A DNA stretch of 64,000 nucleotides, taken from the NCBI GenBank assembly GCA_004022145.1, contig RCNU01000002.1; one strand, 5' to 3'. Below the pieces are notes generated by a model. That model was not told where the DNA came from. It made no database searches and was given only the letters and a program-made list of their open reading frames with translations. The DNA comes from Paecilomyces variotii. Taxonomy: Eukaryota. The position numbers and the translations under genes are program-made. Below, in pieces: positions 5,625 through 34,473 of this stretch; the first letter of the stretch is position 1; every line of letters begins with the position of its first letter.

Positions 5625-5695
5625 GCATCATTGGTCTAGTGGTAGAATTCGTCGTTGCCATCGACGAGGCCCGTGTTCGATTCACGGATGATGCA
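5625..5695 (+). tRNA. tRNA-Gly (GCC), intronless
   Basis: GCATCAT/ATGATGC ends of the acceptor stem, D-arm TGGTCTAGTGGTAGA, anticodon stem CGTCG/CGACG around TTGCCAT, T-loop GTTCGATTC, and a downstream T6 run (Pol III terminator). Confidence 0.97.
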
Positions 5696-8212: not shown

Positions 8213-10749
8213 TCAAACATTGTTGCCATTGACCTGGATGGAGTCACCGTCTTCCTTTCCACGTTTGAGAGCCTTGGCCAGCATGAGCTCTCGCATCCAG
8301 TCGATCCGCTCATCTCTTGTCTTCACTGCGAAGTGGTGAGATTTGCCGTTAGTGAAGATCGCCTTGCGATCCACCGTGGCAGTGTTGTTGGTGGAAGGAA
8401 TCAGGGAGAAAGCAAACGCGGCTTCATCGATCGTGTTTTCCCTACGTTTCAACACGGTCTTCTTGAAAGCAGCGGTCAGCTTGGAGCTGGATGCAAGCGA
8501 GGAGCAAGCAACAGCATAGTCGTCCACGTCGATATACTCTAGGGCTTTGGAGTCACGCCGAGAGGCCCGCTCATCGGCATACATGGAGAGCTGAGTGCCC
8601 TTCAGTACGAAGTGGTGGTCTTCCCACTCGTGGCGCAGGAGACGCGTCGTCTTGCGCTTCTTCATCCAGCCGCTATGGGTGACATCGTTGGCATTGCGTG
8701 GAGCATATGTGAATGGGCTTCTACCATGATTCGTTGCTCGAGGAGTACGGCTGAGATCTTCTGGGGTCTCGATGGGGTCATACACATCGGTTTCATCCAG
8801 ACGGTCGAGGGTGGGGACATTCTGGGAAGTATTCCTGCGATGGTTGTCAACCTTAGTTGACGATGGTCGCTGAATAGGATCATGTCTGGGCATGAAGTCA
8901 GAGCCGAAACGCATGTCGGGCGGCACAGACTGAGACTCCTGGCGGGGTATAGGGCCAATAGGCACAGCAGTGATGGGGACGTCCATCTCTGAGAATGGAG
9001 TACCCTGCCGATATACAGACTCCTGACGGTAGTACTCTGAAGGCGACATCATCGAGCCATAGGTAGGTTGGTTATGAGAGACTGGAGTGGCTCCCTGAGG
9101 TGAGAATGGACGTCTCTTGTGCAATACGGAAGGGGTAATAGTGCGTTGTGCTGAGAGCGTCGCAGAGAAGCTCCCAGGTGCCGGGTTTCCGTTCATTGAT
9201 GGGATCCTCAGTTTCGGAAGATTACGCAGGTTCTCAGTCAGAGTGACATTTGTCTTGACGGAATCTGGCGAGTCTGCAACTGGAGACGCAAACGCTTCTT
9301 CAGGGGGGCTCGCAGGGTTGTTGACTGGTTGCAGTCGGTTCAGATGCTGAAAGTTGAGGAACTGGCGCACATTCTCCTGGGGATCCCGCTTTTGGACTTC
9401 ACTGAGCTTCTGCTCTGATATTTGGAACTCAGGAGTGTTAGGCCCAAGCACATCGGACGATGCGACAATAGACGGTGACATATCCGACTTGCTTTGGCGG
9501 ACGAGGTTCGGTGCTGTAGCGGGATTCCCTGGGTCACCAGTGAGGATGCTGCCGCCAGAGAGAGACTCGAGAGACTCAATAGGTAGGTCTTGAGCCAGAC
9601 GAGCGAGCTTGCGCTGCTGCCTCTGCCATTTGGGACAGTCTCTGCCCTTAGAGCAGCTGTGAATCTTCGGGAGTAACTGCTCAATGGCAACTATAGACGC
9701 CGACTCACCAGGGCGCACATCCTCCGTGTTGCGACGGTGGTGACGATGCTTTCGTCGGCGCTCCCTGGTTGGAGTGTCGGCATTCTTGTCGTCCGACGAC
9801 GGGGAACCGTTGTACTCTTGGCGTGGAGGTGTAGAGGAGTGGTGAGATGCAGGCTGAGAACTGCTCCTCGACGACTCTGGCGGGGACTGTCGCGAGACGC
9901 TGTTTTCCTGGGCCTCGCCATTTCGGAGCTGTTGGATAGAGTTCATCAGACGGCGTCTCTTACCGAATGAATGGATCTCTAGTTCTTTCAGGTCCTCCGC
10001 TTGAAGCTCAAGCAGAATTGCACCAGAGATGTCATTGATGAAGAACTTTTCAACAATGCTCTCATCGAAGTCGGAGTCCTGCAGCCATTTCACAACGTCT
10101 GTGGGAGTCCAGCTCCCAACATCCGTTTCATGTGATTCAATCGCAGGTTGCGATATCGTGGGTTGCCTGGAATACTCATTCCGCAGTGATATTTGATTCC
10201 GGGCTGCTTCGACTGCTGATGTAGACGGCCCAAGACCAACGGCAGGGCTGACTGGGGAGGAGTCCTCGAGGATAAAGTCTACCTCGAAAGATGACTTGAT
10301 ATCCGAGCCATCCAGCGAAGATCGGAAGAGATGTGGCCCGACCGGGCCCATGACGGGCTTTTCATCAAAGTGGAACTGAAACTGATCTAGTCCTGTGGAA
10401 CCGGGAGTCTGGACCTCCTCTGTAGACACAGTTGAGATACTCTTTGTTGCCAGCTGGAAAGGGCCCCGTTAGTCTAGATTTCCAGTGACAAGGTGATTTG
10501 CTGGAACTTACACTTCCCCGTGGGGAATCAGCAGCGTAGAGCTCGACGTAGTCTTCATCATAGTCAGTGTCGAAAATCTCCGTTACGTTGGAGAGAGGTC
10601 GTTGTGGCGTCGAACTCCTGGGGTTCATAAATGAGCCTATATCGCCAGTTTGCAGTACTTGCAAGCTCGACCGGTGTCCTGGTTCGACAGCCTGTATCAA
10701 TGTTAGGAAGGCCAGCATGTTCAGACAAGGACGTAGATATGCATACCAT
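8213..10749 (-). CDS. SAM- and PH-domain protein (Boi1-like polarity protein); 3 exons (introns 10746-10692, 10511-10454), first exon only ATG
   Basis: SAM domain (WTPTDVVKWL...NDISGAILLEL...LEIHSFGKRRRL) and C-terminal PH domain (HSGWMKKRK...WEDHHFVLKG...RIDWMRELM). The canonical introns join in frame. Confidence 0.88.
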
Positions 10750-13700
10750 TTTGCGTGTCACGACCAGGGGGCCGTAGTAGAAGGTCTATCCCAAACAAAC
10801 AATGTGAGGGTAATCTTTTGCGCTAGCAATGAAGATGACAGGAGCCGTCCGTGGCGATACTTGCTTCAACAGGATGGAAGAGTAAAGGGAACAAGAGACT
10901 TTACACTTTGAAATATACACTCGAGGGAAACTATACATGAGCGATGGAAAGCAGAGTTTTAAAAGCACGATGTGGGGTAAAACGGCTGAGGAAACAGAGG
11001 GTGGATTTTGCACGTTATATGTACATACATGGCTTTCCAGGTCTCTTCTGAATATTGGGATAGCGCGGTAACTTCCATAAGCTAGGACGCCTAGGACTCT
11101 GCAGATTCGACAAGATTGTGACGAATTGCGGTAGTACTGTGAGGCTTGCATTAAGCGGATGAAACGAACCCAGCGATGGATGAGATTGCAGAGCTCTTCT
11201 TGTCTACCCTTGTCTGCTCCACGCTGGTTGGCGTATCATTTTCGAGATTTAATTATGGCTCTCTCGGCACGGAGCGGCGGGAGGATCCTACATGCTTCTG
11301 CAAGCTCGTTGGATGGACTTCGAGAATTTCCGCCTGTCGCTGGGCGCGTTACTGAGCATTGAAGGAGGTTGTGATGCGGGCGGATAGAGAATGGTCCTGA
11401 CAGGTCAGACGGCGTGCAGCTAAAAGCGCCCAGCACGCCCGTCGACCGTTCAGAGAGCCAGTCTACGCGCCGAGTCCAGCATCCCTGAAGCGCTAACGGC
11501 CTCAGCGTGCAGCAGAAAAAGAAAATGAAGACTCTGAATGATCAACGACTGGACAGACAGCGGTATTCTAGTGCAGTAGCTCGAGTGACGAGCAGAATCA
11601 CCCCGACTGGCGATCGATACCTCTCCGCCAGTCTGCTCGTTGCGATAGGGTCACGCTCAGTAACCACCCGATTTGGCCGCAATGTCGATAAATATAGCTA
11701 ACTTGGGAAGAATTGATCTCCATTTTCCTGCATGCATGCCGTTAATAATAATATCTCTCAGAATAGCATAATTCGATCTCCAGTCAAACCTGCCAGCCAC
11801 CAGTCATTCACTGAATAAGCATCTATGCATACTTCCTTAACTTAGTGGACTCATTATCTCCTTCCAAGATGCTATGCATCAGCGGTGACGAATGAAAGGC
11901 TGCAAAGAGAGGACTCTTCAGAAGCGAAAATTCAAGGTTACGCTATCCAGTGCCATCATGTCATCTTTCGTTCTGGAGTGGTCGATGGCAGGCAGAGTCA
12001 AATGTCACCTGTAGGAACTTTGCTAGTGTGGTGCTGAGCGATATCGCAACCCCAGAGAGAAGCAATTAATACAGTGCGTTCCAAAAATTGCAACAAGCGA
12101 TCGAGAATCAACTGATCTCTGTGTCTGCATCAATTCCGCTTGGGATCGGCAAGAATCATGGCGATACTCGACTGTGCCGATTGCCGCCCGATATCTAGTG
12201 TCCGTCGTGAAGGAAGATCCTCTCCACGAGGACATGCTTCCTTTCCATGGGTCCGCAGCAGATGAATAGGGCGAAACAATTGCAGCCTGTAAAGATAAAG
12301 GCGACTGTAGCATCGAAGTTCGTCTCGGATTTGGCCGTGGGGATCGGCAGTTGCTAGCAAAGTAGCGTCTTGTTGCCGCCCAGGGTCACGGGGGATCTCA
12401 ATAGCAGCCCGATCTGGTAGTCACATGGCTGGGAAATCAACCCGGTTTTTCTCTACGTACGCAGCCCGATGGTGCAAATGTTCTTCGCAAAGATGGCCTT
12501 GATAGGGGAATCCAGCAATAAAAGAAGCCTGATCGAAGGAGCCAGTCAGGGTCTTTTTCGCCTCACATTTATGCACCTCTAGTCGTTTTGGGTTGGTTTG
12601 AACGAGCAATTTTCACCCTTCTGCTCAATTGATTTGTTCAATAATGACTAACTACCCTGCAGAAAAACCTCATCAATATTATAATTACATGGCCCAAGCT
12701 TCCATTAGTCGCCCATCATAAGATCACCGCTGCGCCACTTTCCGCTGATTCTGGGCAGCATCGATACTAGTCCCTATCAGTGCGGGGTTGTCCTTGTCTT
12801 ATGATGTCTACGGAGTATATAACCAGGAATAATCTTCCAGCCGAGGTAGACGCCTCTGGAGCTGGGACCTCTAGGCGTCAGATGAGTGCATGTCACTTCA
12901 GCGCGAGCAAGGTACCAGCAGCGAATCCAAATGTTACTGTTCGAGGGAATTGGACAGTGCGTGCCATGCGGAGGAGCCGGTGGTGACATCGGAGGGGGAC
13001 AAAAGTACAACTTGGGCACCAGCCATTTTCCACGAAGGGCATATGCTGGGGTTCGTCCAGTTACTTTTCATACTATGGTCGTTCGTCTTTCTTCACCGCT
13101 CCTATCAGTCTGATTTTGATGGCTGGGAACCGGTGATCCAGTAATTAGATATTGAGATCACCTGGAAAGATAGTATTTGTGCTTTTCGTTATGTTGCGAA
13201 GCAGGTTTCAGCCCTTCACGGTCATCCAAACAGTAAGTCGCTGTCTGGGAGAAAAGTATGGTGGAGAAATAGAAACAACTAGGTATCGCATACGCACTCG
13301 TAAGTTCTAATATCGAGGGCCGATCCGATCTACGGAGGGGTTTTTATCGATCATCACGATCGGCATAATGCATACTCTGCGGCACAAATCTACTCTGTAA
13401 GTAGACTACTCTTGTAAATTAATGAACATTATTTTATCCATTCCTTGAAGCTATCATCGGACATTATTCATGCACTGTCCTCTATCAAGTCTATATAGTT
13501 GGCTATGAAATCCCAGTTGTGAATATTCCGGCCGCGTTCCGCTCTATACTACGCGCGAATCATTATTCTGGTTACCATATCAGCAGAATCGATGAAATTT
13601 AACACGTTCTTGACACCTTGGGCAATGATTTATTTTCGTTTAATATCCTATATTACCGCCCTCCTATTTCGGAAGCGGGGTTCGACACCCAATATCCCCC

Positions 13701-15042
13701 TCATCTCCTCATCTCCTAGAAATTAGAACTGGTCATATGTCTACCAGTGCTATGTACAGTACTTACTAAATGCTGGTACGTACTTTCAGAGATACCTCTA
13801 TCCGCACCATAGAATCCGTGCAACCTAATTCCCTCCGCTGACAATTTATTATTACTTAGTTAGATAGTGCTAACTATCAAACTACTAACCTACCCACACT
13901 AAGCAGAAAAACCGAAGAGAAAAAGAAAAAGCAAAATACAAACCAAACCCCTCCTTAGATCTGACGAACTCATTGACCGGACTATTCCGAGATTCGCGAA
14001 CTAAGTTAAAAAGGTTTTCTTTCCAAGAATGCATAGTTAAAGCTTTGGTTCTGGTGGAGTAACTGAACTACTAACAGTATTAATTAATGCGCTTGAACTG
14101 AATGGAGTTAGTTGTACTGTAAGTAAGTCCATCAGCGGGACGGGTAAGTATGTTCCGTAGCCGGGAGGTCCGCAGTTCGTACCATGGATTTTAACGAGTT
14201 TTACGAGTCGCTGTGGATAGGTAACTATGTACTATACAGAGTGCGGACAGTAGTTATCAGGAAATATCATCTGCTGCCAAGAAACGCCACGGGTGATTCT
14301 GCAGAAAATTAAGTGGAAGTTGAATTGATGCGACTGTTTTGTGTCATGTTGTAATATTGTGTGAGGTGTGTTTTAGACTATGCCTCCTTTGTTGGAAGCG
14401 GGTCCTTTGATATCGGGTTACTCCGTATATATGTGGCAGTTCTGGCTCTTGATGTCTTTAGGTTTTTGCAATAATGGATATAAAATCCTGACATCTATTT
14501 AGTTTGCAGCGCACACTCCTTCGCAGACCTTATTAATTGACACATCCTGTCTTGTCTATGTTCAATCACGGGGCGCTACGACGTATTCCAGTAAGTCTAG
14601 ATGGGACCGAGATACCCAATGATGGCTATATTCTCCCGTCGAAGGAAGAGAGATACATACCATGTCAAAGTCCTTCTTGGTGAAGTCGCAAGTGAGGCTT
14701 GATGTTCTGGATGGTCTCGACTCCTCTTCTACAAGGTAGACATCCTTGCATCAACATCAACAGATACGAGTAAAGTTTAGTGGCCAGGGTGCCGTAGCCA
14801 AAACTTTTCCGCATTAGGAATGTGAGATGAAACATTGGATGATATATCATGTCCCTTTGCCTGAGGCACTCCGCCATGTCATTATCCAGCGGTCGAGACT
14901 TTATTAAAGAGCGGGCTGCGAACGGGGAGTCAGTTGTTAATCCGTCTGTGGTGCACCGTACCATGGATGCGCTACACTTAAATGCCAACATTGGAGGCTT
15001 TTCTGTCTTGACAGTAAACCTCCTAGATAGCGGGAAGTAGTA

Positions 15043-15479
15043 ACGTAATTCCCTACCAACCGGATCACCCGCCCAAGCGGATCAGTGCCGTATTACATAT
15101 AAAATAGCCCTTTTTTAAACCAAAATATCTCAACAATCAAGTATCTAAAGGTTATCAGAACGGATATATACAAAATATATATTATTAAGATTATATATGT
15201 CTAATTTTATCTGCTTAAGTCTTGCCATTATCTAGATATCTTAAATAGAATATAATTATAAAAATTATAACGGTAATTTATATTATCTAAATAATAAGCA
15301 ATTTTTAGAGCCTAAAATCTTAGTATATAAAAGTTTACTATAATAGAAAGCAATATACTAAGTATTATATGCGCTAGATATATGATTGTTGAGAAATCTT
15401 GGTTTTAAAAGACATCGTTCTGTATGTTATATGCCACTGATCCGCTTGGGCGGGTGATCCGGTCGGTAGGGAATTACGT
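15043..15479. mobile_element. Non-autonomous Tc1/mariner-pogo (Fot1/Tan1-type, Vader-like) MITE, 437 bp, with TA target-site duplication
   Basis: 45-bp TIRs ACGTAATTCCCTACC(A/G)ACCGGATCACCCGCCCAAGCGGATCAGTG with 1 mismatch, extending imperfectly to 97 bp. TA at 15041-42 and 15480-81. AT-rich non-coding interior. Confidence 0.93.
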
Positions 15480-17862
15480 TACCGGTTCCATGATCCTGTT
15501 TCTATTGTTGAGAACGTCGCTAATCTCTAGTCCTGGGGGAATGGGGAAACAAAAGGACAGAAATGTCAGTGCGCCAGTACTCTAGACTTCAGACGATTTC
15601 CCTCTATGAAGATGTTTGCCTCGACGAAGAGGACGAATGTAGGATACACGCCTAAAAGCGTCATTACTTTCCATCTCCTTGTTCATCACTAAATTGAGAT
15701 CTCCATAGATCGCCTCATCTTGAACGATTAATTAATTACTTACCAACCGGCCCATGCCGGAACAATGCGATGCTACTCCTTCCCCCATGGGAACGAGCCG
15801 GGGGGGAAGTCGATAATACGGTTGCTGCAGCCGAGGAGTCCAGTCAATCTGAAATTGTTGCTAATTATGTCCATTTTTCTTTCCTCACGAAAGGGTGGTC
15901 GGGGATTGGCTGGTAGGCCATAAAGAGTGTTAACTGCAGATGGTTATTATTAGCAAAATGCACCCAATGCAGATAGAATTAGGGCTGTCGAGCCATCTGC
16001 AGCCCAGGTACCAACCAAAAAAGGGAAATTAACAGCATTTGACATGGGCGGTTAAATGCTGCTAATTAAGGAGCATCGGCCATCTTATCACATCGTCCGA
16101 GCGTCTTTTTCACGCGAGTTTGGCTGTTGTTTTCCCCCCCGCCTCGAGCCTGCACGGACGGGACTAAATTAGCCTATCTGTATGATGTACTGTACCAAGC
16201 CGGCAAGGTTAAGCAGGTTAATTACATTAATTCAAATCAAATTAAATCAACTAGACTAAACTAAACTAAACTAAAAGTCATCCATCACACTTCAGTTCCG
16301 TTGGCTGCGGGCTTCCCGTGCTGCATGGCATGGGGCGCTCCCACGGACCACGCCGTTCTGGATATCATCCAATCCAGCCTGGAGAAGATGGAAGCTTGGC
16401 ATGCACTTGGATCTCACGCTATGCTCATAATCTCCTCGTGCAAAAAGCCCTGGTTCTTTCTACAAAACGAGTTTCCACTCTCGTGCTTTCGACTTGCTGT
16501 TATTGGGCATTCCTGCCAAACGAGGTCCTCCAGTACTCGTTCCCTCCAGCCCCCGGATGGAGTCGGGGATGCACGATAGGCGGAATCTAGAGTGACCTCC
16601 GTCCTTGTCGACTAACTAGAACCGCTAAGTTAGTCAACTGTTCCATTCAAGATCGGACATCGTTCTGTGCGCAATAATACTAGATGGCCCTCTTCTTCTC
16701 CGAACCGATGTCGCCCCAAGAGTGGAGAGAGATGAAAAGATCCACCGGATCCAGATAGGAGAGCCGCTGCACATTTGCTTCTCTATCTACTCCGTACCGG
16801 CCAAGTCCCTCGCTAGTGAGATCTTCAGCCTTGTGCCTCCCATACTGGGTTAATACCCAGGCTGGCAGATCGGCAATCTCGTAGAGATGAGACCCTGTAT
16901 CAGGGGGTAGTGGACAATTATGGCTACTGCTTTCTGGCGTCATCAAACAGTAGTAAATTTGCGGCACAGTCATAGCAGAGAATACCCCATGTCGGACGAT
17001 TTCAGAAGCAGAATCTCCTAAACATCGCTTCTCTCTTTGCGCGTGACGTTGACAATACTTCTTCTGACCGTGGGATCGATGCAGGGGCAGCTAAACTGCA
17101 ACTAAACTCCTAGCTTCCTTGGGCCTTGTCCAACTGATAAACAGGGTGTGAAGATGTACATACACTTTGGAGCTCGCACCTATCATATCCTCCATTTTAC
17201 CCGGCCACACGAGAAACGAAAGGGTTCGTCGCCGCCGTCTGGAAGTCGTCGAGCCATCCACGTCCAGCGGTTGTTGATCCTTGCCCGGCGCTATCCTGCA
17301 TGTCCTCCCCCCTGTTCATTCAATCGGCACGATCGAGTCTGTATTCTTGAGGTTCACCCAAATTTAGGCTGCTAAGCCGGTCCCTTGACACCTGCTAGAT
17401 CGTCCCGTAGCGCCATTTTGTTTTTAGACCTCCTTTCTGCGGCTTTCTGGTGAGGTTGGATCCAATTACAGATCTCCCCGCTAGCATCCCATCGACTCGT
17501 GGACTCCACAAAGGTCGTCTAAAGGGCGAAAATAGAAACAGTTCTGTCGCTTGTTCAGTCGAAGCACCGACTTTTAAACTCATCATGTCCAAGATCTGGA
17601 GAATAATGAAGCGTGTAGAGCCGCACAGGTTTTGTTGTGCTTCCTCTCCCGCCTCTCCCCGTCCTGTCTCTTCCCTGGATAGCCAAAGCTGCCGGTCCAG
17701 CTTTGCAATTGCGGTCTGAATAGTCTGGAATAGCTAGCTGGTCTTGCAACTGTTCCGGCCCGTCAACAGTTCCCTGGAGGAGATTCTGAGGGCTACTGGT
17801 TTTATTGAATTTATTGTTATTTCTTTTTTTGCTTGATGTGCATGCGCCCTGAAACTGTCAAT

Positions 17863-29244: not shown

Positions 29245-31583
29245 ATGTCTGTCGATCCCTTACCTCGCCAGTCTCAAGCCTCCCCGCTCTCGCGAAACCG
29301 TTCGATTCTGTCCAGGTTCACGACGCACTTCGGTCAGCGGAACCGCAACATCTCAGATTTCTACGTACAACCGGACGACCCCTGGAAGACATACTTCCCT
29401 GGAGACACGATAAAGGGGACGGTGGTGCTCACGGTCATCAAGCCCGTGAGAATCACTCACCTGGTGATATGTCTACACGGGTATGTTAAGGTGTTCAAGA
29501 ACACGATTGCTCCCGGTGAAAAGATTCCAGACTCTGGATTTCTCGGTACCGGAAGAGGACGTAGAGGTTCGGAGTACTTGGGGAACGGGTTCGCGACGCT
29601 TTTTGAGGACGAAGTGGTCCTTTGCGGGGATGGCCGTCTCAAGGAGGGGATATACAAATTTCAGTTCGAAATGGAATTCCCTCCTCACGCTCTCCCCAGT
29701 AGCATTAACGTAAGTCTCCCTGATTGGCAGTATCTTGTTGTGTTCGAGAGCTTGTTCAGTGCTGATGCATCTCCTCAAAATAGTTCGAACGCGGCACTAT
29801 TACCTACATGCTCACGGCTACCTTGACGCGACCAAGTACGATTTCTCCTGTTATGTCGTGCCACAAGAGAGTGAATATGCTCGAGAATATTGACATCGCG
29901 CCTTTTCCTGCACCAAAGCCCCGGTTAGTCAGTCTAGAGCCGGTCTCCAGGCGGTCAAGAACCAAGTCCAAAGGCCGGAGTCAGTCACTGTCAACAGATC
30001 AGGCTCGGGAACAGCGGTCACCAGATCAGTCATCTAGTCTGGCTGTGGCTCACGACCACAGGCCTCCTGTAAGCCCTGCCCCGAGCGATGTCAGCTCATC
30101 GAGTCGCCTCAGCCATAGCAGTCAGAGTTTCCAAGTCGTCAGTGATCCTAGTTCGGTAAATGGCACCGGGAAGCGCAGCAGCGATATCCGCAGTGTCGCA
30201 ACGTCAGCATCGGACAAGACGATTACGGCAACGGCAGAAGTACTACGCGCTGGAGCACTCCCAGGTGATACGCTACCCATCAAAATCACTATCAACCACA
30301 GTAAGCAGATACGAAGCCCACATGGCATTATTATCACCCTCTACCGGCAGGGCCGCATTGACATGCACCCTGCCATCCCCGTCGGCCAGCCTGAGGAAGG
30401 CAAGAAACCGATCTACGAGGATGTCTATCCCAAGTCCCGCACTGGCCTGGGTGGGTTGAGTTTTGGTACTACACGCTCAAGCAGCGTCTTCCGCAAGGAC
30501 CTGTCTCAGGCATTCGCACCACTAATTGTGGATCCTGCTACGATGACTGCACAGATGAAGATGTCAATCAGAGTCCCGGAAGATACGTTTCCTACCATAA
30601 CTCGAGTCCCAGGAGCCATGATCAGCTTTCGATATTACATCGAAGTCGTCATGGATCTACGCGGGAAGTTGGCAGCTTCAGATCGCTTCCTCCCGCGGCT
30701 CAATATGGTCTCCGGAGGAAAAAGCTTCTCTTCAAGCGGACATGTTGTTAATGTTCCTGATAACAATTCAAACAGCGTTACAGCCAATTGGGCAGGAAAC
30801 ATCATGGACACAGATCAGATTCGACGCGAAAAGGGAGTCGTGGCACTCGTTTTTGAGGTTGTGGTCGGAACGCGAGACTCGGGTAGACATCAGCGTCACC
30901 TAGCCGACGAGGAGTTGAACGCAATGCCCACGAGTGACGAAGACCGACAAGAATACGATAATGACGCCACCCCCGAGGAAGAGTATGCGCAGCAAAATTA
31001 CTACTCGAATGGCGATTATCAGTCACACCAGGAAGATTACTGGGCCGACTATCCGACCGACAATGTCGAGCAGCCTTTCCAGTCCCCGGACCATATGGTT
31101 ATCCCACCGCCAACACAACCAGAAGAGCCTGTCGATGAGAAGACTAGACTTCGACGAATGGAGGAAATGCTTCTACCAAGCCAACCTCCGGGCGACGCTG
31201 CAGCTGGTCCCTCCACGGTGCCCGCACAAGCTCCAACTGCTCCTGACCTTCCTGATGAAGATGAGCTATACGACTACAACCCTCATCTGCCCGGACAGGC
31301 AGTACCCCCTCCACCCACTTTGTCCGTTGATACCGTCGTTCCCGGTCCAGATTTGGCAGCCCTCAGCGGATCAGGTGCCTCTCATCCTCCGACTGAGGAT
31401 AAGCGCGAACTTGAACGGCAACGACTAATGGCCCAGGCAAGTGCACCAGAAGCAACGGCCGAGGATAGTCGGCCCGGTCCTTCTACTGAGGCTGCTCCCA
31501 GCGCTCCTGATCTCGACGAGGAGGACAATATCTTGAATGCGGATGTCGGTACTGATGAGTCTCTACCACAATATCGTCGGTGA
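29245..31583 (+). CDS. palF: Arrestin-like pH-response regulator PalF/Rim8; intron 29710-29783
   Basis: Arrestin N and C domains (RITHLVICLHG, LPSSINFERGTITY, LYRQGRID, FRKDLSQ), PxAP motifs and C-terminal ESLPQYRR. Confidence 0.95.
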
Positions 31584-32715
31584 ATGGGAGAAGTTTGCAT
31601 GCATTTTCCTGTGTTGTGGCGTTCCATTGTCGCATTTAAATATATTGCATTGGGTTGTTTTTGACTATACATGCGGAGATACCATATTTTTTGTTTCGTT
31701 AGGTCGGGAGTCACCGCTCCCGCACCGGATTGGGTCTGGTCCTGGGCGTTGACAGCAGAAAAAGCAGGAAGATTAATGTTCTCTAGGAGTGACACGCGGC
31801 GTTATATCTTTGGGTCTTTGGGTTTGTCATATACCATATATACCAATCTCACTTATCATCTCGGCCGTTATTGTCGATATAGGATGGCGTGTGTTATAGT
31901 TGGCGAGTTAATAGCACATTCAATGGAGAATCTGCCCGGCTTCGTCAATGATGATGAAGCCGGCAACAAATTTATTGATACATGTCGAAATAAATTCAGA
32001 TAAAGGAATTCCTATCCATAAGTGCCGTTTCCCTTCTTGTGTATTTCATAGAGAACGACCCAGAAGGGTCCGCACCCCGCCTTTCAAGTACAGTACTTGA
32101 CGGATTCTTGTCGAACTTGGCGAAGGCCAGATAAGATGAGATGCACGTATCTGATCTTCTGTTAGAGCTTGTCGTATATTGGAATGTAAACTGTCTTACC
32201 GCCCACGGACTTTTCCAGAAGCGTTAAAAAAGTGTATCTTAGCTCATCTTTTGCCTGAATTTTAGTAATCGTCTGCCGTCATTGATGCTTATCTTTGGCG
32301 CCCATCTTTGGCGCTCTTCGAATCTGGTGGTAATTATTACAGTGGATTGTAATTTGTTTGGCTCGTCTTCGCCAAGCGTCGTCTAACTATTACCAAGTTC
32401 GGACTAACCAGCGCTACGAACTTTCGCCCAGCAGAACACCCGAGGGCACTCCCGCGCGATCAAACCCCCCCAAAGCCTCTCCGCGAGAGCAGGGTTCTCG
32501 TCTCTGTTAAGGACACTCAGCTGTCTTCGTATCCGGTCCTTATCGTCGAACGATTCTTCCACTTTTCACAGCATCTGACTGTTGTTCCTGGTGCTTCCTA
32601 ACAGTGACAAGTGCCGGGGATCACATCATAACTACGCCGATTGTGTTCAGCCCCATTACATCAAAAACGGACCAAGTTTGAAAGGCCACGCGACGATTTC
32701 TTTACGCTGTCCGTC

Positions 32716-33673
32716 ATGGCGCTCAAGAGCGGGTCGTTCGCGACCTTTTTGATCGTTTGCCGTATGTCCACTGCATTTCATTTCATATTCTGGCGTGGTG
32801 TTTCATGCTCGTTTTTGAATCGTTCCTCTTGTTGCGGTCTTATCTGTTCTTGAGATCACTCTCCGCTATGCTTCGCCATGATGTCTCTTCTTCATTGCAT
32901 CTGGGATCTTCGACCTCTGCGTTCGTTCGACCGGATGTGCCAGTGTGGATAAATGCATGGAAGAGAGATTTGCGAAGATATAGCGGGTCAATGTGCAAGA
33001 AGAACTCAGATAAAGACAGATAAAAGACAACGCCGCATCTTTACAACCATGGACTGGATCGAAGCTAACTCTCAGACAAAAATAAACAGCAACATGCTTC
33101 TTCCTGGGCATCATCTTCTCATTATTCCCATACGACTACCCTCTCCTCTGGTCAACAGCTCCAACTCCCGGCTCGCATTACGACTACCTAGAAGCACACC
33201 TGCGGTTCTTGCACGCCTCTCCGCCGCTGATCCCGCGCATTCTCCACATCGTCATCTTCTTGGGTCTGGCTGGTCTGGTCGCGAAACTGTATAAGCCCTC
33301 GGAAGCCAACATGCTCTTCGACGGCGCCAGTCTGGTCCTGTATATGTGTGGTATCACCGTCTACATCGCCAATATCGTCAAGGGTCTCCGTCTCGTCACT
33401 GGTGGTCAGTACGGCTCAGAAGTTGGTGATTCCAACCTGGAGGAAGGAGAGCAGATCCTCGGCCGTGAGGACAGTCTGAAGGTTCTCGCCGCGAGCAATA
33501 CCATTCTGGCCCTGGTCCTGGTGGGCGTTTTGGTCTTGCAGGCTGGTCAGTGGTACGCTGAGCGAAAGGATGCGCAGGAGTACGAGAGCCTGAACCGTAA
33601 GACAGAGGAGAGGAAGGAGGCACAAGCCGGGAAAGTGTCGCGGCAGTCGAGCGTGTCGAAGAAGAAGCAGTAG
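32716..33673 (+). CDS. shr3: ER membrane chaperone Shr3 (amino-acid permease packaging); intron 32762-33089
   Basis: SFATFLIVCPTCFFLG across the intron, KLYKPSEANMLFDGASLVLY and VLAASNTILALVLVGVLVLQAGQWYA. Confidence 0.93.
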
Positions 33674-33888
33674 ATCAGAGCTGATTTGGCATTCGTCCCT
33701 TTTCTGCTGTATTTGTTCTTCTTTTGGATGCTGTGTTCTATTGGCAAGCGTGTGACGATAGATGATGTTGACTACTACGTCTCAGTAGTAGAAGATGGTT
33801 TAATTGCTGGTTGGAAAGATAAAAATATGAAAGTTGAAATAGATCCGCTCCTTTTCAGCTATTATTTTTTTTCTTTCTCTCTTTCTTT

Positions 33889-33911
33889 CCCCCCCCCCCC
33901 CCCCCCCCCCC
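33889..33911. repeat. Poly(C) tract of about 23 nt between convergent 3' ends
   Basis: Read directly from the sequence. Confidence 0.85.
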
Positions 33912-34473
33912 TTTACGGATGGCATTGTCGAAAAGAACGTGTATAATACATCAAAAAGGGGGAAAGGGTGTTGTTTTTCTTTCTTGAATATGTAGCAACG
34001 GCTGCGAGTTATACAAATACCAGGGAAACCTGCGCATCACTCTTCTTTTGAGATGAGGACATCATTCTCTTCTCCGCCTGATTAGGTTGAGATATTTTGC
34101 TCTCCCCCAGTCCAAAAAAAAAGGAAAGGATAAAATGCAATATCACGAATATTTCCGTACACACATATACATTCTCTCTGTGAGGCAGAAAGTAACAAAA
34201 AAAATTGGTATATTTCTCATTCATCGCTAGAAGGGGGAATCTCTAAGAGACATAACATGCGGGCCAAGCAAAGACAGGTTCCTGGGCCGGCGTCCTGAGA
34301 TACTCAAGGGTAGTAGTAGAAGAGTAGATGCAAGCTACTACTCCCTTGGAAAGAACTCATGGCTTTTGTTTTCATGATTAAGCATTGAAGGGTCGTTTCT
34401 GGCGTAAAATAGGTGAGATGGGGAGGAGAACATGGACAGTTTTTTTTCTTTTCTTTTCTTTTGTTTTGTTCGC

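Follow-up and report, generated by a model that had tools for sequence, protein, structure and literature searches.

In long introns of yeast, pairing between a donor-proximal and a branch-proximal segment brings the branch point effectively closer to the donor; it can promote splicing, and such pairing can be needed for efficient splicing (PMC2536676, PMC12350175). In the latter report, a zipper stem is defined as a helix of at least 6 bp that begins 10 nt or more from the donor and leaves linkers of 42–85 nt in total, and the 6-bp criterion goes together with in vivo probing support and an effect on splicing (PMC12350175). Inverted repeats are known from another group of fungal introns. The introner-like elements and the (stw)introns of the Hypoxylaceae are longer than regular introns and contain inverted repeats or stable predicted hairpins; they are multicopy, whole introns at new positions, with repeats that extend to the splice sites (PMC8469720, PMC3609843). 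The symmetrical sister (stw)introns of the Hypoxylaceae carry terminal inverted repeats of 45–55 nt with ~73% identity, which lie ~100 nt apart in a 207-nt example (PMC8469720). A third related group comprises the MITEs and fold-back relics that are found within introns.

Intron 1 of the shr3 gene of Paecilomyces variotii, located in the middle of a 64,000-nt stretch of genomic DNA (the window), held an imperfect inverted repeat of ~212 nt (32821–33032). The finding belongs to two known kinds, intronic fold-back insertions and intron stems of the zipper type. In the reading preferred here, to which a probability of about one half is assigned, the repeat is a passenger that collapses on itself, and its fold would keep the enlarged intron spliceable. 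The coordinates of the gene, the intron and the repeat are given in Table 1. Among the matches listed in the full-text literature on shr3 and introns, no description of this element was found, and the main text of the genome paper contains none of the terms 'intron', 'MITE', 'inverted repeat' and 'small RNA' (PMC6300479).

Table 1. Positions of the shr3 features and of the parts of the intronic repeat, numbered along the window
Feature	Position	Strand	Description and basis
shr3 exon 1	32716–32761	+	ATG; 15 codons, then base 1 of the Pro16 codon; direct reading, RNA-contig junction
shr3 intron 1	32762–33089	+	328 nt, phase 1, GTATGT..CAG; RNA-contig joint 32761/33090, motif scan
Left arm of repeat, pyrimidine-rich	32821–32900	+	Self-reverse-complement alignment; long-range pairing probability mostly 0.5–1.0
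Central spacer, apical region of rod	32901–32952	+	52 nt, small terminal hairpin; fold and self-alignment
Right arm of repeat, purine-rich	32953–33032	+	Self-reverse-complement alignment; pairing probabilities
Tandem 10/11-nt duplication in right arm	33007–33027	+	Direct reading
Branch-point element GCTAAC	33064–33069	+	Branch A at 33068, 21 nt 5' of the 3' splice site; motif scan
shr3 exon 2	33090–33673	+	With TAG stop; Pfam PF08229, ORF list
shr3 3' UTR to poly(A) addition site	33674–33843	+	Loose ends of RNA contigs

The translation of exon 2 (33092–33670) matched the Pfam family SHR3_chaperone (PF08229) with an E value of 4.8e-70 and a score of 234.8 bits, compared with a gathering cut-off of 25. 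The spliced product of 209 residues had the same length as a protein named shr3 of Paecilomyces variotii (P0001), which was 100% identical to the exon-2 product over the match. The closest relative protein seen for the shr3 product shared 91% identity (P0002). Judged from its sequence, the host gene encodes a Shr3-type ER chaperone for amino-acid permeases.

The splicing of intron 1 was followed in contigs from RNA libraries. A joint from 32761 to 33090, which skips 328 nt with GT..AG borders, was present in contigs of runs X3 and X18, and in run X17 a contig starting at 33090 was preceded by a loose end equal to the final 10 nt of exon 1. These contigs establish the intron with the borders that the initial annotation had given it (32762–33089, 328 nt). 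Loose ends of 22 A residues followed position 33843 in X17 and X18. The 328-nt joint was the only joint seen in the RNA contigs, and a motif scan of the whole intron gave a single match to the donor consensus GTRHGY (GTATGT, 32762) and a single match to the branch-point consensus RCTRAY. Contigs crossing the whole unspliced intron were present alongside the spliced junction in X3 and X18, so splicing may be inefficient; alternatively, these paths may represent DNA or pre-mRNA. RNA amounts cannot be read from the contigs, in which DNA or nascent RNA would look just like retained intron. X3 was only guessed to be RNA, and X15, an RNA library, contained an unspliced, DNA-like contig of 11.7 kb. 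X17 had no contig over the intron and X15 had no spliced contig, and an uncovered part proves nothing.

Strain differences among the runs were found at 7 places in the 5' UTR and promoter (32446–32633) and at 4 places in exon 2 and the 3' UTR (33400–33694), of which 3 were coding, all at third codon positions. Inside the intron no strain variants were listed in X15 or X18, compared with 11 in the flanks; these counts are too few, and the runs possibly mix strains, to give evidence of constraint.

For comparison with other fungi, metagenome contigs were scanned with an alignment of 20 Shr3 proteins, which gave 80 fungal loci with many duplicates. Both exons were located by a script in 72 of the 80 loci, and the other 8 lacked one exon in the fetched DNA or fell below the score cut-offs. 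A GT..AG intron was present at the same phase-1 Pro16 codon in 67 of the 72 loci; the remaining 5 were intronless and look like transcript-derived or intron-less copies. By this comparison, the position of the intron is ancient. The 48 distinct orthologous introns were 48–121 nt long with a median of 59.5 nt. Against these orthologues the shr3 intron is several times longer, a contrast that the initial annotation had drawn with most introns of the window. The product of one locus (L009) was 99% identical (222/224) to a protein named Thermoascus aurantiacus shr3, a species of the same family as Paecilomyces in the NCBI taxonomy, and its intron was 82 nt long. This locus, the one used for the protein comparison, and three others (L009–L012) agreed fully in exon-1 peptide, in splice motifs and in an intron length of 82 nt.

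When the shr3 intron was compared with the 80 fungal loci, only the exons and splice sites aligned, and the interior of the intron was similar to none of them. Copies of the intron were likewise not found in these loci, where only chance matches at an E value of 3.5 appeared, and the repeat was not found in any of the 48 distinct orthologous introns. The fetched orthologous introns thus showed no conservation of the structure and had no alignable interior. Removal of the repeat from the intron leaves 328 - 212 = 116 nt (59 + 57), a length that falls among those of the orthologues. It is most economical to suppose that a short, old intron gained ~212 nt after the lineage had diverged from Thermoascus.

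The composition of the intron flipped sharply at its midpoint, with pyrimidines at 63–71% before position 32926 and 37–39% after it. The nested complementary blocks listed in the initial annotation were all present in the DNA. The outer pairs were TGCGG at 32833 with CCGCA at 33033, GTCTTATCTG at 32837 with CAGATAAAGAC at 33007, and TTCTTG at 32847 with CAAGAA at 32996. The inner pairs were CCGCTAT at 32863 with ATAGCGG at 32980 and CTTCGC at 32871 with GCGAAG at 32972, and the innermost were TCTCTTC at 32884 with GAAGAGA at 32960 and TGCAT at 32896 with ATGCA at 32953. The ACA at 33043 and the CTAAC at 33065 were also confirmed by direct reading.

In the alignment of the two arms, 61 of 71 positions were Watson-Crick pairs, with 10 small gaps. 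Aligned locally with its own reverse complement under Watson-Crick pairing only, the intron scored 84, whereas dinucleotide shuffles scored 34.6 +/- 7.4 (z 6.7; 0 of 500 reached the score). The excess was retained when shuffling was confined within halves of the intron (z 5.4, 0/500) or within 82-nt blocks (z 5.3, 0/500). Among 777 sliding segments of 328 nt across the 64 kb, the shr3 intron was the third-best self-complementary locus. When G-U pairs were allowed, the excess over the composition-keeping block shuffles fell to z 1.5–1.8, and 30 and 41 of 500 shuffles reached the score. In the rod predicted for the plus strand, 4 of the 60 long-range pairs were G-U, compared with 2 of 57 in that of the minus strand. 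The signal is an inverted repeat at the DNA level. Since it is a Watson-Crick signal without an excess of G-U pairs on the sense strand, there is nothing to single out the sense RNA as the target of selection.

All 10 mismatches in the arm alignment opposed purine to purine or pyrimidine to pyrimidine, and none was G-T or A-C, a count that depends on the placement of the gaps. Neutral decay of a perfect repeat would not be expected to give such a pattern, with the same reservation about the gaps. The left arm was also 74% complementary over 19 nt (32863–32881) to the region of the start codon (32714–32732); this was judged to be at chance level for a region of 451 nt, and it would offer an alternative pairing partner.

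RNAfold of 32825–33045 gave a single bulged rod, as had been proposed, with a minimum free energy (MFE) of -68.7 kcal/mol. The energy of 200 shuffles was -58.4 +/- 4.4 kcal/mol, which corresponds to a z of -2.33 with 3 of 200 as good, and the same segment on the minus strand gave an MFE z of -1.57. The whole intron had an MFE of -88.4 compared with -83.2 +/- 5.5 for shuffles (z -0.94, 20 of 100 as good); its minus strand gave a z of +0.32, and block shuffles gave z values of -1.1 to -1.3. The energy was thus barely better than that of shuffled sequence for the segment 32825–33045 and no better for the whole intron, which leaves the evidence weaker than the initial annotation implied. Together with the lack of conservation in the fetched orthologous introns, this partly agrees with what the initial annotation had named as refuting. 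Folding energy is a poor witness in this case, and the self-alignment of the repeat is the better one.

The fold-back persisted in silico in a pre-mRNA context of 551 nt, where the core helix 32863–32876/32972–32986 was paired with a probability of ~1.0. The outer stem 32837–32851 was predicted to be paired at 0.84–1.0 in two alternative registers, which arise because of the tandem 10/11-nt duplication in the right arm. Residues 32842–32846 paired with 33017–33021 at a probability of ~0.5, and their total long-range pairing was 0.97–1.0. Within the branch element, 33066–33069 including the branch A were predicted to be unpaired with a probability of 0.95–1.0, and 33064–33065 were mostly paired (unpaired probability 0.05–0.08). 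The donor was predicted to be partly accessible, with its first two bases mostly paired (unpaired probabilities 0.06 and 0.13).

The structural branch-point distance was computed after Rogic et al., a measure that discriminates weakly, as shuffled sequences also fold end to end. The donor-to-branch graph distance was 7 in the MFE structure and averaged 8.2 in a sample of 300 structures, compared with a linear distance of 297. Introns with shuffled interiors had structural distances of 16–17, and 5 and 4 of 100 were as short as the native intron. Any RNA of 300 nt folded alone has its ends close together, so the short structural distance between donor and branch point is weak support.

When the rod was compared with the yeast zipper stems (RPS17B/RP51B), the arrangement was alike in the described features. 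In both cases, an unusually long intron holds complementary segments, one following the donor and the other preceding the branch point. The repeat arms started 59 nt after the first base of the intron and ended 31–36 nt before the branch element, which agrees with the position of a zipper stem. However, the linkers were 84–95 nt in total when measured from 32821/33032 and ~104 nt when measured from the high-probability helix at 32837, compared with the limit of 42–85 nt reported for zipper stems, so that they lie at the edge of that range or beyond it. Furthermore, a zipper stem is a short helix, whereas the shr3 rod is an inverted repeat with ~80-nt arms whose pairing is predicted in silico. 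The host also differs, as it is a filamentous fungus with short introns, and the rod is a recent, lineage-specific addition. The zipper-stem rule is a yeast rule, and nothing shows that filamentous fungi follow it. The resemblance of the shr3 rod to zipper stems would thus be one of function, by analogy, and not a clean membership.

The repeat resembled MITEs and fold-back relics in introns in its length of 212 nt, its near whole-length inverted repeat, its lack of coding sequence and its restriction to one lineage. Terminal inverted repeats on a short non-coding element, a trait of MITEs, were present (61/71 Watson-Crick). Unlike in MITEs, no target-site duplication was recognised and no second copy was present in the 64 kb. 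A search with blastn at word size 7 gave only chance matches of 11–21 nt within the window, and by eye the possible repeat boundaries showed only partial repeats of 3–4 nt (TCT/TCT, or TCTT with an offset). An origin from a mobile element is therefore unproven.

Two further intron classes were considered and rejected. An introner-like element in the strict sense does not fit, because the position of the intron is ancestral (67/72 loci) and the repeat lies inside the intron, with 59 nt left on the donor side and 57 nt on the acceptor side. A stwintron, in which one intron is nested in another, is excluded as far as motifs go, because only one GTRHGY and one RCTRAY were present, and the 328-nt joint was the sole joint in the RNA contigs. 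The hairpin also resembled mirtron-like and fungal milRNA precursors in being a long hairpin in a spliced intron, and differed from such loci in having neither a family match nor conservation.

The analysis shows the repeat and its excess over chance, the junction in the RNA contigs, the constant position of the intron and the shortness of its orthologues, and from these we infer an origin by insertion, the kind of element and a fold that keeps splicing workable. In the preferred reading of a self-collapsing passenger, the ancestral short intron 1 of shr3 would have gained the imperfect inverted repeat in the Paecilomyces lineage, either from a small fold-back or MITE-like mobile element or by local inverted duplication. 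Pairing of both arms into the bulged rod would loop the extra sequence out of the pre-mRNA, which would bring the separation of donor and branch point back to roughly the ancestral distance given by the 116 nt of non-repeat intron, so that the spliceosome could still cut the intron accurately. The rod would then be a tolerated passenger that acts like a yeast zipper stem and not a separate RNA gene. Of the four origins offered in the initial annotation, the decayed fold-back element fits best, since the repeat exists at the DNA level, is missing in the orthologues and explains the excess length. The proposed splicing-related structure is plausible only in the passive sense of looping-out, and its regulatory part is borne out by no test. 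The organism can be transformed and crossed according to its genome paper (PMC6300479), so the looping-out idea is testable with mutants.

The same repeat could be a neutral DNA relic, either a decayed MITE or fold-back element or a palindrome generated by replication, whose RNA fold is irrelevant because the spliceosome copes with an intron of 328 nt. This reading is rather unlikely, yet several results agree with it. The complementarity is of the Watson-Crick type at the DNA level without a sense-strand excess of G-U pairs, the whole-intron MFE is not better than that of shuffles, shuffled introns also bring the donor and branch point close together, and the repeat is missing from the orthologues. 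It is opposed by the rod that was predicted with high probability in the pre-mRNA context and by the orthologue-like 116 nt that are given back when the repeat is removed. Chance complementarity between a pyrimidine-rich first half and a purine-rich second half is another reading, and the sharp switch at the midpoint and the G-U-tolerant block shuffles, which often came close, point in that direction. Nevertheless, the Watson-Crick-only score was reached by none of 500 shuffles even with the composition kept in halves or in 82-nt blocks, and this control makes pure chance unlikely, to a degree that leaves the explanation highly improbable. A regulatory device is doubtful, in which the rod would slow or gate splicing and thereby produce an intron-retaining mRNA that tunes the output of Shr3. 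Reading from the ATG into the intron reached a stop at 32851–32853, after 45 codons, and the unspliced contigs beside the spliced junction in X3 and X18 and the predicted pairing of the first two donor bases are consistent with such a device. However, these contigs carry no RNA levels and may derive from DNA or nascent RNA, the nature of X3 as RNA was a guess and the RNA library X15 held the DNA-like contig, no dependence on conditions is known, and the fetched orthologues are without such an element.

Readings in which the hairpin is itself processed into an RNA product are likewise improbable. As a Dicer substrate, the rod would be a precursor of a milRNA or hairpin siRNA released from the spliced intron. 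Long and largely Watson-Crick, the rod over 32815–33040 has 60 long-range pairs at -69.8 kcal/mol, and it sits in a transcribed and spliced intron; typical small-RNA precursors, however, are much shorter and less bulged, no Rfam miRNA match near threshold was found in the intron, and there was no conservation, which makes this reading very improbable. The Rfam search of 32000–34000 at E values up to 10 gave nothing credible, the best match being a fragment of NEAT1_2 at 20.6 bits compared with a gathering score of 60, so the intron region has no family match. An intron-hosted snoRNA, which would be of the H/ACA type through the ACA at 33043, 6 nt past the rod, or of the C/D type through one relaxed C-box-like heptamer at 32878, is already largely refuted. 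Folded separately, the two halves of the intron gave weak structures (-0.15 to -0.17 kcal/nt), so the hairpin-hinge-hairpin of an H/ACA RNA is missing, and neither RUGAUGA nor CUGA occurs anywhere in the intron, which excludes a C/D snoRNA as far as motifs go. The element is also lineage-specific and without an Rfam match, and the initial proposal of an intronic ncRNA is not supported for the snoRNA type, given the lack of a family match, of C/D boxes and of a two-hairpin fold.

A domesticated, lineage-specific regulatory RNA, which would act as a splicing switch through early-stop intron retention or as a Dicer-processed milRNA hairpin, is improbable as a whole. If it were true, the regulatory rod would set the levels of Shr3 and so the ER export of amino-acid permeases, and an inserted fold-back would have turned into a control element of nutrient uptake. 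Under the preferred reading of a passenger that collapses on itself, an ancient, short, position-conserved fungal intron has been nearly tripled by a self-complementary insertion and is yet accurately spliced. If the fold keeps splicing workable, the yeast zipper-stem idea would extend to filamentous fungi with intron definition, and a filter would be suggested in which only self-collapsing insertions survive in short introns. If the fold is irrelevant to splicing, the repeat would be an ordinary insertion relic.

The window contained other self-complementary loci. A 457-bp AT-rich stretch (15033–15489; GC 31%) was a fold-back that was self-complementary over its whole length at 350 of 431 positions. 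Its gapless arms measured 72 nt (88%) and 36 nt (86%), and no long ORFs were present around it. This MITE-like or fold-back element has no sequence relation to the repeat in the shr3 intron, from which it lies 17 kb away, and is the stronger of the two; such elements therefore occur in the genome of Paecilomyces variotii. In addition, a GC-rich (61%) palindromic stretch at 11327–11518, self-complementary at 142 of 171 positions, outscored the shr3 intron in the sliding-segment scan.

Immediately upstream of shr3, a 591-residue ORF on the plus strand (29808–31583) contained an Arrestin_C domain with an E value of 6.5e-09. Arrestin-like adaptors direct the endocytosis of permeases, so a putative permease-trafficking adaptor adjoins the gene of a permease chaperone. 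Further away, a 738-residue ORF on the minus strand (8213–10429) contained SAM and PH domains. At gathering score, Rfam matched nothing in the window but a tRNA gene on the plus strand (5625–5695).
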